Part shown: one piece after another, positions 48,378 through 54,523 of the stretch
Numbering within the stretch: the first letter of the stretch is position 1
Layout of the letters: each line of letters starts with the position of its first letter
Assembly: GCF_022846255.1 (NCBI RefSeq)
Contig: NZ_AP025682.1
Reading direction: 5' to 3' (one strand)
Origin: Escherichia coli
GTDB taxonomy: Bacteria; Pseudomonadota; Gammaproteobacteria; Enterobacterales; Enterobacteriaceae
Length of the DNA: 64,000 nt
Program-made: the position numbers and the translations under genes
The notes under the pieces: model-generated
Database searches by the model: none
What the model was told of the DNA's origin: nothing
The model's input: only the letters and a program-made list of their open reading frames with translations

Positions 48378-51768
<3,391 letters not shown>

Positions 51769-51776
<8 letters not shown>

Positions 51777-52902
51777 TCCGATCCTGTCCTGGCGTCGCGT
51801 GCGGGCGCTGTGCGTCAAAGAGACGCGGCAGATCGTTCGCGATCCGAGTAGCTGGCTGATTGCGGTGGTGATCCCGCTGCTACTGCTGTTTATTTTTGGT
51901 TACGGCATTAACCTCGACTCCAGCAAGCTGCGGGTCGGGATTTTACTGGAACAGCGTAGCGAAGCGGCGCTGGATTTCACCCACACCATGACCGGTTCGC
52001 CCTACATCGACGCCACCATCAGCGATAACCGTCAGGAATTGATCGCCAAAATGCAGGCGGGGAAAATTCGCGGTCTGGTGGTTATTCCCGTGGATTTCGC
52101 CGAACAGATGGAGCGCGCCAACGCCACCGCACCGATTCAGGTGATCACCGACGGCAGTGAGCCGAATACCGCTAACTTTGTGCAGGGGTATGTCGAAGGG
52201 ATCTGGCAGATCTGGCAAATGCAGCGAGCGGAGGATAACGGGCAGACTTTTGAACCGCTTATTGATGTACAAACCCGCTACTGGTTTAACCCGGCGGCGA
52301 TTAGCCAGCACTTTATTATCCCCGGTGCGGTGACCATTATCATGACGGTCATCGGCGCGATTCTCACCTCGCTGGTGGTGGCGCGAGAATGGGAACGCGG
52401 CACCATGGAGGCTCTGCTCTCTACGGAGATTACCCGCACGGAGCTGCTGCTGTGTAAGCTGATCCCTTATTACTTTCTCGGGATGCTGGCGATGTTGCTA
52501 TGTATGCTGGTGTCGGTGTTTATTCTCGGCGTGCCGTATCGCGGGTCGCTGCTGATTCTGTTTTTTATCTCCAGCCTATTTTTACTCAGTACCCTGGGGA
52601 TGGGGCTGCTGATTTCCACGATTACCCGCAACCAGTTCAACGCCGCTCAGGTGGCCCTGAACGCGGCTTTTCTGCCGTCGATTATGCTTTCCGGCTTTAT
52701 ATTTCAGATAGACAGTATGCCCGCGGTGATCCGCGCGGTGACGTACATTATTCCCGCACGTTATTTCGTCAGCACCCTGCAAAGCCTGTTCCTCGCCGGG
52801 AATATTCCAGTGGTGCTGATAGTGAACGTGCTGTTTTTGATCGCTTCGGCGGTGATGTTTATCGGCCTGACGTGGCTGAAAACCAAACGTCGGCTGGATT
52901 AG
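51769..52902 (+). CDS. ybhS: ABC-2 type permease YbhS (377 aa)
   Basis: ORF track trimmed to [11 protein letters not shown]; overlaps the ybhF end. Confidence 0.9.
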
Positions 52903-52912
52903 GGAGAAGAGC

Positions 52913-54019
52913 ATGTTTCATCGCTTATGGACGTTAATCCGCAAAGAGTTGCAGTCGCTGCTGCGCGAACCGCAAACCCGCGCAATTCTGATTTTACCCG
53001 TGCTGATTCAGGTGATCCTGTTCCCGTTCGCCGCCACGCTGGAAGTGACCAACGCCACCATCGCCATCTACGATGAAGATAACGGCGAGCACTCGGTAGA
53101 ACTTACTCAACGTTTTGCCCGCGCCAGCGCCTTTACCCATGTGCTGCTGCTGAAAAGCCCGCAGGAGATCCGCCCGACCATCGACACACAAAAGGCGTTA
53201 CTACTGGTGCGTTTCCCGGCTGACTTCTCGCGCAAACTGGATACCTTCCAGACCGCGCCGTTGCAGTTGATCCTCGACGGGCGTAACTCCAACAGTGCGC
53301 AAATTGCCGCCAACTACCTGCAACAGATCGTCAAAAATTATCAGCAGGAGCTGCTGGAAGGAAAACCGAAACCCAACAACAGCGAGCTGGTGGTACGCAA
53401 CTGGTATAACCCGAATCTCGACTACAAATGGTTTGTGGTGCCGTCGCTGATCGCCATGATCACCACTATCGGCGTAATGATCGTCACTTCACTTTCCGTC
53501 GCCCGCGAACGTGAACAAGGTACGCTCGATCAGTTGCTGGTTTCGCCCCTCACCACCTGGCAGATATTCATCGGCAAAGCCGTACCGGCATTAATTGTCG
53601 CCACCTTCCAGGCCACCATTGTGCTGGCGATTGGTATCTGGGCGTATCAAATCCCCTTCGCCGGATCGCTGGCGCTGTTCTACTTCACGATGGTGATTTA
53701 CGGTTTATCGCTGGTGGGATTCGGTCTGTTGATTTCATCACTCTGTTCAACACAACAGCAGGCGTTTATCGGCGTGTTTGTCTTTATGATGCCCGCCATT
53801 CTCCTTTCCGGTTACGTTTCGCCGGTGGAAAACATGCCAGTGTGGCTGCAAAATCTGACGTGGATTAACCCTATTCGCCACTTTACGGACATTACCAAGC
53901 AGATTTATTTGAAGGATGCGAGTCTGGATATTGTGTGGAATAGTTTGTGGCCGCTACTGGTGATAACGGCCACGACAGGGTCAGCGGCGTACGCGATGTT
54001 TAGACGTAAGGTGATGTAA
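52913..54019 (+). CDS. ybhR: ABC-2 type permease YbhR (368 aa)
   Basis: ORF track; paralogous to ybhS. Confidence 0.9.
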
Positions 54020-54391
54020 CTTCTTATCTTTCGCCAGCAAAGACACTACCGCAGGGCCGGCAAGGATTGCCAGCCCTGCAATTGCCAGCACAAAGTTGTT
54101 TTCCAGTACGCGGGACAACAGCCACAGAACAATCAGCGCTGCGCCAAAATACCAGGTCGTGGTCAGCTCTTCCAGCACGTCTGCCACCTCACGCCAGCGT
54201 TGCTCGGGGTGGCGCTGAAACACCAGCATCATCACTACCGTGACACAATACAGTGCGCATAATCCTACGCCGACGTGAACCAGAGTTTTACTCATCCAGC
54301 CCACCACCAGCAGCGCCACTACCAGTAAATGCAACATAATCTGCCAGCAACTTAGGCCAGTTGCGACACGAACACGTTGTTGCCACTTCAT
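53981..54391 (-). CDS. ybhQ: inner membrane protein YbhQ (136 aa)
   Basis: ORF track; 4 predicted TM helices; 3' end overlaps the ybhR 3' end by 39 nt on the opposite strand. Confidence 0.85.
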
Positions 54392-54523
54392 GGCTTCTCT
54401 CCTGAAGAATTTATCTCTACTTATTCAGAGTACCGAACTTTACGGAAAATTCCGTAAGACCGCACCTTTTTGTGACGCCGACTACACTATTTCAATGAGA
54501 TAAGAGGCAAAGACAGGAAAATT

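Follow-up and report, generated by a model that had tools for sequence, protein, structure and literature searches.

The genes ybhR and ybhQ of Escherichia coli, which lie tail-to-tail on opposite strands and whose products are both inner-membrane proteins, share 39 nt in which both strands are coding. The best explanation as a whole, to which we assign a probability of about 0.8, is that this overlap is genuine and old and that both genes code for proteins. In the window, i.e., the whole 64,000-nt stretch of E. coli DNA analyzed here, the two genes and their shared part are located as follows:

52913-54019, plus strand: ybhR coding sequence, 368 aa (open reading frame list; Pfam ABC2_membrane_3, E = 4e-51; RefSeq).
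53981-54391, minus strand: ybhQ coding sequence, 136 aa (open reading frame list; Pfam YbhQ, PF11076, E = 8e-73; RefSeq).
53981-54019, both strands: dual-coding overlap of 39 nt, YbhR residues 357-368 plus stop against YbhQ residues 125-136 plus stop.
53981-53983, minus strand: ybhQ stop codon TGA, the reverse complement of ybhR Ser357 TCA.
54017-54019, plus strand: ybhR stop codon TAA, the reverse complement of ybhQ Leu125 TTA.

YbhR is an ABC-2 permease encoded by the final gene of the cecR-ybhGFSR operon, and YbhQ is a member of the YbhQ family, with a PF11076 match that spans residues 1-132. Strong Pfam matches and the presence of orthologs in 80 species indicate that both are true protein genes. 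Within the overlap, their codons are in register, with position 1 opposite position 3 and position 2 opposite position 2. The 39-nt convergent overlap claimed in the earlier note was recovered alike from the open reading frame list, the sequence and RefSeq. Identical coding sequences and the same overlap are found in the RefSeq annotation of a 100%-identical genome, and the annotation of strain MG1655 also contains a 39-nt overlap (ybhQ 824630-825040, ybhR 825002-826108). The locus was found in 5423 of the 5426 complete E. coli genomes. The overlap is already known, as it is part of the standard annotation and the transcript overlap has been catalogued as an excludon, and in this respect it is an ordinary feature of small importance beyond bookkeeping. 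What the comparison adds is that the overlap is old and appears to be constrained in both reading frames. In practice, if the 3' end of ybhR or ybhQ is deleted or tagged, the C-terminus and the 3' end of the partner are changed as well, and knock-out phenotypes ascribed to either gene should be interpreted with the shared 3' ends in mind.

To characterize the evolution of this arrangement, we compared 81 sequences, i.e., the window and 80 species. The 39-nt geometry was retained in 67 of them (65 clean pairs, plus two assemblies in which one of the genes is defective at another place), and the genera that have it include Escherichia, Salmonella, Citrobacter, Enterobacter, Leclercia, Kluyvera, Buttiauxella, Cedecea, Atlantibacter, Mangrovibacter and Siccibacter. 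The overlap is probably ancestral to Enterobacteriaceae. Ortholog alignment, which had been proposed in the earlier note as a means to detect an earlier stop in either gene, revealed none, and both stops occupy the same positions in the 65 clean pairs. In all 65 of these lineages the ybhQ stop is TGA or TAG. The ybhR stop is TAA, TAG or TGA across species and the YbhQ residue opposite it is only Leu or Ser, the residues with codons antisense to stops. The YbhR tail itself, GS[AV]AY[AWLM]MFRR[KN], is almost invariant.

Loss of the overlap was observed solely through insertion of an ERIC-like repeat (13 lineages) or a change of Ser357 (one lineage). Both genes persist in the 13 insertion lineages, in which the YbhQ tail has been swapped for a repeat-encoded one; thus, the exact tail is dispensable. 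The original ybhQ stop is missing in five of the 13, where the inserted repeat provides another. The Ser codon TCA is a minor codon. At Ser357 it is kept wherever it is used as the ybhQ stop, and it has drifted to TCG or ACA in 5 of the 13 lineages that do not use it. As entered in the test, the ybhQ stop was kept in 66 of 67 lineages without an insertion versus 8 of 13 with one (Fisher p = 2.9e-4, ignoring phylogeny). Since ERIC-like insertions have split ybhR and ybhQ several times, these lineages represent natural controls.

A consensus scan for intrinsic terminators (a GC-rich hairpin followed by a U tract) found none downstream of either stop, and there is no intergenic spacer between the two genes. 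Thus, the 3' untranslated part of each mRNA is located inside the partner gene, and the geometry of the coding sequences makes the transcripts antisense at their ends. That the 3' end of each mRNA lies inside the coding sequence of the other gene had been missed in the earlier note. Its claim that the transcript ends are mutually antisense holds on several grounds, including the geometry, the excludon listing, the Term-seq end described below, antisense reads and p19-captured duplex fragments. All transcript data used here refer to MG1655, another strain, and were taken from supplementary tables. At least 79 nt (53941-54019) of the ybhQ mRNA can be matched as complement to the ybhR mRNA. The pair is among the 165 convergent excludons of MG1655 reported by ExcludonFinder and is present in at least 50% of 58 RNA-seq samples (NAR 2025, PMC12288877). 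In published total RNA-seq data, antisense versus sense reads amounted to 24.0 versus 14.2 RPM for ybhR and 1.2 versus 16.2 RPM for ybhS, and ybhQ mRNA reached 111 RPM over 411 nt versus 14 RPM over 1107 nt for ybhR. Published short duplex RNAs that are RNase III-dependent map to both ybhQ and ybhR. In four Illumina samples, p19-captured duplex fragments of ybhQ and ybhR (205-354 RPM) were about ten times more abundant than those of ybhS (16-30 RPM), these being counts per gene that are not located to the overlap.

On the side of ybhQ, the gene belongs to the sigma-E envelope-stress regulon, a point overlooked in the earlier note. The following element is located upstream of it and is a putative promoter of the sigma-E type:

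54425-54453, minus strand: candidate sigma-E promoter of ybhQ (GGAATTT, 17 nt, TCTGA).

ybhQ was found to be induced 5.0-fold in a sigma-E regulon table (Bury-Mone 2009), and a sigma-E ChIP-seq peak was located between ybhP and ybhQ in Salmonella. It may be hypothesized that the overlap couples the CecR-controlled exporter with sigma-E-driven ybhQ.

One way in which such coupling might operate is a functional excludon, in which sigma-E-induced ybhQ antisense RNA would lower YbhGFSR in envelope stress through RNase III or polymerase collision, and the reverse, so that the two units would be mutually exclusive. We consider this unlikely, although several observations are in its favor: the overlapping transcripts are catalogued as an excludon, ybhQ is in the sigma-E regulon, its mRNA is far above that of ybhR, antisense reads exceed sense reads over ybhR, duplex fragments are enriched for both genes, and mscL-arfA provides a precedent for antisense control via a 3' overlap. 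However, the ratio of ybhR to ybhS sense reads was 0.88 in the wild type, and two RNase III (rnc) mutants gave similar values of 1.16 and 0.91 (single samples), which speaks against a strong effect under the condition sampled. In addition, stable complementarity is limited to the last ~80-150 nt of a five-gene operon, and the coding overlap is gone in 13 lineages that retain both genes. Within the preferred reading of a genuine and old overlap, cross-talk between ybhQ and ybhGFSR would be a modest side effect and not a dedicated switch.

It is also necessary to consider how much of the overlap might be expected by chance. In this antisense phase, stops arise only from the sense codons TCA, TTA and CTA, which together make up 2.2% of codons in the long open reading frames of the window, giving a probability of 0.76 for a 12-codon read-through. 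Thus, the length of the overlap is unsurprising. This expectation would suit a neutral accident, in which ybhQ, after the loss of an ancestral stop or spacer, ran on to the first antisense stop, leaving a functionless tail and an overlap that is kept by inertia. The variability of YbhQ residues 125-130, whose facing ybhR third positions have entropies of 1.06-1.74, and the replacement of the whole tail in the insertion lineages are consistent with such a history. However, it is the conservation of the overlap, not its length, that goes beyond chance. Three observations speak against a neutral accident: hardly any variation is seen at the synonymous sites of ybhR opposite the stop and residues 131 and 133-136 of YbhQ, Ser357 remains TCA in every lineage where this codon provides the ybhQ stop, and the Pfam YbhQ model reaches residue 132. 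A neutral accident is rather unlikely in our opinion.

Judging from the aligned sequences, purifying selection appears to act on both reading frames in the overlap, and the motif with which YbhQ ends, K-H-x-[VI]-R-[RH]-stop, seems to be constrained most strongly. Among 26 conserved ybhR Ala codons, the least variable third positions are those of codons 353, 359 and 352, all of which are within the last 17 codons. In codon 358 the third position is G throughout (66 of 66 sequences), and TTT prevails at Phe363 by 59:4. The mean entropy of codons 347, 352, 353 and 359 is 0.215, as compared to a gene mean of 1.16 (0/100,000 permutations, which, like all cross-species statistics given here, ignore shared ancestry). 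At codons 358-359, the constraint could be at the RNA level instead of on the YbhQ protein.

The 3' end of the ybhQ mRNA in MG1655 has been mapped by Term-seq to 825080, with two entries as 'primary ybhQ, antisense ybhR' (Adams et al. 2021, Supplementary file 1). We placed it in the window via the MG1655 annotation and sequence, the tabulated 61-mers covering -50 to +10 around the 3' end. Two features are relevant here:

53947-53973, minus strand: hairpin A, a GC-rich stem-loop with a GUGGCCG...CGGCCAC core, located in the ybhQ 3' untranslated region 7 nt past the ybhQ stop and inside ybhR codons 345-354.
53941, minus strand: steady-state ybhQ mRNA 3' end (MG1655 825080, Term-seq), located 40 nt downstream of the stop, with hairpin A ending 6 nt before it.

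Hairpin A is a stable stem-loop directly upstream of the steady-state 3' end, and the sequence that follows (AAACUAUUCC) lacks a U tract. Its predicted folding energy is -19.2 kcal/mol (z = -4.4) on the ybhQ-sense strand versus -14.6 kcal/mol (z = -1.7) on the plus strand. Over the 81 sequences, 93.6% of cells are paired, and the pair changes, G-C to A-U (6) and C-G to U-A (3), went through U-G intermediates. At the three synonymous sites that ybhR has within the stem (codons 347, 352 and 353), the entropies are 0.28, 0.38 and 0, respectively, versus the gene mean given above. We suggest that 3' exonucleases may trim ybhQ RNA back to hairpin A, which would protect the trimmed RNA. On the other hand, the hairpin is intact in Raoultella, where the ybhQ stop is more than 180 nt away, which implies that its role may extend beyond the ybhQ 3' end. 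To see whether hairpin A decays where the overlap has been lost, we compared the overlap lineages with the insertion lineages, of which there are 13 related ones: a difference was obtained in the number of pairs (p = 0.0017), and none of significance in the folding energy (p = 0.35).

The overlap and the stem-loop in ybhR might together be a selected device, whereby sigma-E-driven transcription of ybhQ would serve, under envelope stress, as a cis antisense brake on the 3' end of cecR-ybhGFSR. This is quite improbable; if true, it would mean that the capacity for drug efflux is connected with the response to envelope stress throughout Enterobacteriaceae.

With regard to termination, read-through is bicyclomycin-sensitive on both strands according to the published MG1655 Rho scores (3.95 and 3.85, p about 1e-7; Adams et al. 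2021, Supplementary file 2), whose positions are coarse because the method uses 800-nt windows. The corresponding regions, together with a second inverted repeat, are:

Centre ~53839, minus strand: Rho termination region of the ybhQ transcript, antisense within ybhR (MG1655 825182 (+), Rho score 3.95).
Centre ~54092, plus strand: Rho termination region of the ybhR-sense transcript, antisense within ybhQ (MG1655 824929 (-), Rho score 3.85).
54048-54082, plus strand: hairpin B, a 16-pair inverted repeat in ybhQ codons 104-115, 29 nt past the ybhR stop.

The 106 nt past hairpin A are mildly C-rich, with a C/G ratio of 1.44 versus 0.84 for the whole ybhR antisense strand, which is a modest enrichment. 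In the preferred reading, Rho would terminate the untranslated read-through RNAs of both genes.

The sole strong hairpin obtained from the terminator scan is on the minus strand (54082-54048), upstream of the ybhQ stop and with a weak T run, and an Rfam search of the region gave no match at E up to 1. On the plus strand, hairpin B folds at -24.7 kcal/mol (z = -2.7) in the window strain, where it may, as a weak suggestion, form a structure at the 3' end of ybhR mRNA. We rejected it as a terminator that is conserved, with RNAalifold energies of -3.6 and 0 kcal/mol and most genera pairing 5-12 of the 16 positions. Its palindromic look is due to the encoded peptide (11 residues).

A different view of the same region is programmed bidirectional termination, in which converging polymerases, placed by a nascent stem-loop, would end each other at the overlap. 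The same collision-based model was reportedly put forward by Ju and colleagues in 2019. The model calls for a stem-loop located between the ends of the two genes (Wang et al. 2022, bioRxiv 10.1101/2022.10.23.513370), and the convergent arrangement and the stem-loops flanking the overlap on both sides would agree with it. However, there is no single hairpin between the stops and the flanking A and U tracts are absent. The bicyclomycin-sensitive read-through on both strands points to Rho instead, and collisions should be rare given the weak transcription of ybhR, which makes this view very improbable.

Finally, long convergent overlaps in bacterial annotations are frequently errors, so that one of the two open reading frames might end earlier or be no gene, but this is effectively refuted by the strong family matches of both proteins, the constant stop positions in the clean pairs, the nearly invariant YbhR tail and the lack of a conserved earlier stop or frameshift in the orthologs, besides the fact that stop codons, unlike starts, cannot be misplaced.

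Several known systems resemble the ybhQ-ybhR pair. Bidirectional intrinsic terminators (Wang et al. 2022, bioRxiv 10.1101/2022.10.23.513370) are likewise found at convergent genes that have stem-loops close to their ends; unlike them, ybhQ-ybhR has neither a shared hairpin between the stops nor A and U tracts, and Rho dependence is indicated. The excludons listed for MG1655, ybhQ-ybhR among them, are defined by overlapping RNA-seq coverage (PMC12288877); the listing reflects coverage, whereas the functional property that defines an excludon is mutually exclusive expression. In ybhQ-ybhR, the overlap is imposed by the geometry of the coding sequences and not by long untranslated regions.

The convergent pair mscL-arfA, found in E. 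coli and further Enterobacterales (Life Sci Alliance 2023, PMC10070815), is also arranged tail-to-tail, and there, too, one mRNA is complementary in its 3' part to the 3' coding sequence of its neighbor. It also has a stem-loop within the 3' coding sequence and involves RNase III. The mscL and arfA coding sequences overlap in some Enterobacteriaceae, whereas the overlap of ybhQ and ybhR is more constant across genera. Antisense regulation has been experimentally established for mscL-arfA, mscL mRNA being more than 2-fold up without arfA (PMC10070815), whereas such an effect is hypothetical for ybhQ-ybhR.

According to Dar and Sorek (2018, NAR, PMC6061677), Rho-dependent transcripts have their ends right behind stable stem-loops that lack a U tract. 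The ybhQ transcript follows this pattern, with a 3' end 6 nt past a stem-loop, bicyclomycin sensitivity and a mildly C-rich region downstream. Unlike the transcripts in that study, its stem-loop and presumed rut region are located within the coding sequence of the convergent gene, so that hairpin A is kept through synonymous sites of ybhR. This implies that the protective 3' stem-loop of one gene can be encoded via the synonymous sites of its convergent neighbor.

The earlier note had claimed a 39-nt overlap between the converging 3' ends of ybhR and ybhQ. This was confirmed here, as the ORF coordinates, the sequence and the RefSeq annotation agree on the following arrangement:

52913..54019, + strand: ybhR, 368 aa
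53981..54391, - strand: ybhQ, 136 aa
53981..54019, both strands: stretch shared by ybhR and ybhQ, exactly 39 nt

The two frames have a common codon register in the overlap: ybhR Ser357 (TCA) is the reverse complement of the ybhQ stop (TGA), and ybhQ Leu125 (TTA) that of the ybhR stop (TAA). RefSeq shows both CDSs and an identical overlap in MG1655 (ybhQ 824630..825040, ybhR 825002..826108) and in a genome that matches the queried stretch at 100% identity, and 5423 of 5426 complete E. coli genomes carry the locus. Each product matches a protein family strongly (YbhQ, PF11076, E = 8e-73; YbhR, ABC2_membrane_3, E = 4e-51). ybhQ is convergent with an operon on one strand, cecR-ybhG(hlyD)-ybhF-ybhS-ybhR, and ybhP-clsB-ybhN are divergent from ybhQ. 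Within the operon, ybhG/ybhF and ybhF/ybhS have same-strand 8-nt overlaps (RefSeq, fetched locus L001 1650-5514, window ~49049-52913), and gaps of 2 nt and 10 nt separate cecR from ybhG and ybhS from ybhR, respectively; operon genes coupled in translation are typically spaced this closely.

The length of the overlap is not beyond chance, because antisense stops in this phase come only from the sense codons TCA, TTA and CTA, which make up 2.2% of codons in long ORFs of the window and leave a probability of 0.76 for a 12-codon read-through. Unlike its length, the conservation of the overlap exceeds chance. We took the ybhQ locus from the genomes of 80 species, aligned ybhQ and ybhR (alignment A1) and located both stops in each sequence. 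With the window included, 65 of 81 sequences had a clean 39-nt overlap, and two more kept this geometry with a defect elsewhere. One is Escherichia albertii NBRC 107761, in which ybhQ codon 16 is changed from TGG to TAG upstream of an intact overlap; ybhQ in this type-strain assembly looks like a pseudogene. The other is a Kluyvera assembly (L038) with a 1-nt deletion visible in the ybhR alignment. The ybhR frame is broken in L038 as well as in Leclercia (L022) and C. amalonaticus (L048) assemblies, which may reflect faulty assembly or genuine frameshifts. In Kosakonia cowanii the overlap extends to 48 nt because Ser357 became Thr. The remaining 13 of 81 sequences lack it. Genera with the overlap state are Escherichia, Salmonella, Citrobacter, Enterobacter, Leclercia, Kluyvera, Yokenella, Trabulsiella, Pluralibacter, Atlantibacter, Siccibacter, Mangrovibacter, Buttiauxella and Cedecea, and non-overlap states are nested within genera that also have it (Kosakonia, Phytobacter). 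By parsimony, the overlap would be ancestral for the family. An earlier stop in orthologs, which would have spoken against the overlap, did not emerge as a refutation from these 81 sequences.

Extra DNA at about ybhQ codon 124 was found in Raoultella, three Kosakonia species, two Enterobacter strains and a strain labelled C. freundii M-21, and shorter remnants in two Phytobacter species and two other isolates. The fetched loci concerned are:

L076, L079 (Raoultella); L027, L029, L031 (Kosakonia); L042, L067, L077: repeat ~360-650 nt after the ybhQ start
L032, L036, L059, L060: shorter repeat remnants ~360-650 nt after the ybhQ start

The inserted DNA codes for a new YbhQ C-terminal tail (..KSFGLHQ.G.AANP..HR) and separates the two stops by 2-206 nt. 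The repeat is ~125 bp long, with two tandem copies in Raoultella. One 127-nt Raoultella copy has full-length matches of ~75% identity at a median of three unannotated intergenic sites per E. coli genome, and it scores 24-26 of 44 locally against the ERIC core. Based on these matches and this resemblance, the insert was assigned to ERIC/IRU-like dispersed repeats. The 13 non-overlap lineages represent natural uncoupling experiments; since both genes persist in the insertion lineages, they can do without the overlap.

The overlap is constrained in both reading frames. In a codon alignment of 63 species with intact ybhR, four-fold degenerate sites (n=148) had a mean entropy of 1.16 bits, with 5.4% below 0.25. 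The least variable third positions among 26 conserved Ala codons were 353 (0), 359 (0.20) and 352 (0.38), all in the final 17 codons, and Pro347 (0.28) was second lowest among 17 Pro codons. The mean entropy of sites 347, 352, 353 and 359 (0.215) was reached by none of 100,000 random four-site draws, with kinship ignored. In addition, the third base of codon 358 (Ala or Val) is G throughout (66 of 66 sequences), and TTT outnumbers TTC by 59 to 4 at Phe363. Sites 358, 359 and 363 lie opposite the first positions of YbhQ codons 136, 135 and 131, and thereby appear to preserve the YbhQ end motif K-H-x-[VI]-R-[RH]. Third positions of codons 364-368 are free (entropy 1.06-1.74), and the opposite YbhQ residues 125-130 vary accordingly; the residue opposite the ybhR stop is only Leu or Ser, the residues with codons antisense to stops. 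The TCA codon doubling as the ybhQ stop is kept everywhere it serves as stop and has drifted in 5 of the 13 lineages with an insertion-supplied stop (TCG in four, ACA in one), a retention of 66:1 without versus 8:5 with insertion (Fisher's exact p = 2.9e-4, shared ancestry ignored). Separately, Phe codons 285 and 291 (window 53765-53785), which ybhQ read-through would cross in antisense after ~160-220 nt, both use TTT in 62 of 63 species, with most other ybhR Phe codons split about evenly; this is a further synonymous constraint.

The following features are relevant to the transcript ends:

53947-53973, - strand (ybhQ-sense): hairpin A, a GC-rich stem-loop 7 nt past the ybhQ stop
53941 (MG1655 825080), - strand: ybhQ mRNA 3' end from MG1655 data, 40 nt downstream of the ybhQ stop codon, 6 nt beyond hairpin A
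54048-54082, inside ybhQ: hairpin B, an inverted repeat 29 nt past the ybhR stop, with a mapped Rho region 10 nt further on

A sequence scan near the overlap gave no sigma-70 promoter-like site and no usable intrinsic terminator, and no Rfam family matched. Hairpin A folds at -19.2 kcal/mol (z = -4.4) in the ybhQ-sense orientation and at -14.6 (z = -1.7) on the + strand. Across the 81 sequences, 93.6% of its pair cells are standard, versus 25-70% with the partner slid; G-C became A-U in six sequences and C-G became U-A in three, with nine U-G intermediates, and wobble pairs occur on the ybhQ-sense strand only. The constrained sites include all three ybhR synonymous positions that it covers (codons 347, 352 and 353). 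Hairpin B, strong in this strain but unconserved, was set aside.

By Term-seq, the end at MG1655 825080 (+) is primary for ybhQ and antisense to ybhR, with two entries in Supplementary file 1, which spans three growth conditions (Adams et al., 2021, eLife, PMC7815308); it was mapped to the window via the MG1655 annotation and sequence, and the tabulated 61-mers were verified as -50 to +10. In the same study, bicyclomycin revealed Rho regions at MG1655 825182 (+) (score 3.95, window ~53839) and 824929 (-) (score 3.85, window ~54092). Thus, each strand has one Rho region antisense to the partner gene, at positions that are coarse owing to the 800-nt windows of the method. Rho-dependent transcripts end precisely after stable stem-loops without U tracts, with rut sites beyond (Dar and Sorek, 2018, PMC6061677), and the ybhQ end fits this rule. 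C/G is 1.44 over the 106 nt past hairpin A versus 0.84 for the entire ybhR antisense. Supplementary files 1 and 3 of Adams et al. (2021) also list, as non-significant (Rho score 0.6), an ORF-internal end 61 nt into ybhQ (window 54331, - strand; MG1655 824690), which may reflect premature termination or processing.

ybhQ-ybhR is among 165 convergent excludons (opposite-strand neighbours with overlapping transcription) present in 50% or more of 58 MG1655 RNA-seq samples (ExcludonFinder, NAR 2025, PMC12288877). Read figures were taken from the per-gene tables of Huang et al. (2020, mBio, PMC7373196), in which p19-captured fragments are short, RNase III-dependent duplexes.

Wild-type sense and antisense reads, and p19-captured duplexes in four Illumina samples (RPM; PMC7373196)
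ybhQ: sense 111, antisense 5.0; duplex 205-342
ybhR: sense 14.2, antisense 24.0; duplex 230-354
ybhS: sense 16.2, antisense 1.2; duplex 16-30

In two SOLiD samples the contrast was about 2-fold (ybhQ 29-33, ybhR 24-26, ybhS 11-14 RPM; PMC7373196). The excludon listing, the antisense reads and the captured duplexes, the latter counted per gene, suggest that the ybhQ and ybhR ends pair and are cut. Together with the antisense Term-seq end, the antisense reads over ybhR and the other data support the mRNA ends antisense to each other that had been proposed. On the other hand, the ybhR/ybhS sense ratio was 0.88 for the wild type, compared with 1.16 and 0.91 for two rnc (RNase III) mutants, and these single samples do not point to a strong RNase III-dependent effect on the operon.

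Given how little evidence bears on it, the suggested regulatory coupling of ybhQ with the CecR-controlled exporter is a weak proposal. One feature upstream of ybhQ is of relevance:

54453..54425, - strand: motif resembling a sigma-E promoter (GGAATTT-17 nt-TCTGA), in the 132 nt between the divergent genes ybhQ and ybhP

This candidate was called with the sigma-E consensus. It is consistent with two published observations. ybhQ is listed in the sigma-E regulon, with 5.0-fold induction (Bury-Mone et al., 2009), and sigma-E ChIP-seq in Salmonella gave a peak between ybhP and ybhQ. Given this listing, a coupling of envelope stress to the exporter is conceivable.

The ybhR-ybhQ overlap is already in annotation and literature, and it belongs to known classes, namely convergent overlapping genes, catalogued excludons and stem-loop-protected Rho-dependent 3' ends. 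The details added here are minor: family-wide conservation and dual-frame constraint of the overlap, a hairpin coded via synonymous sites of the neighbour, and ERIC-like disruptions. The closest studied parallel is mscL-arfA, for which antisense control has been demonstrated (PMC10070815).
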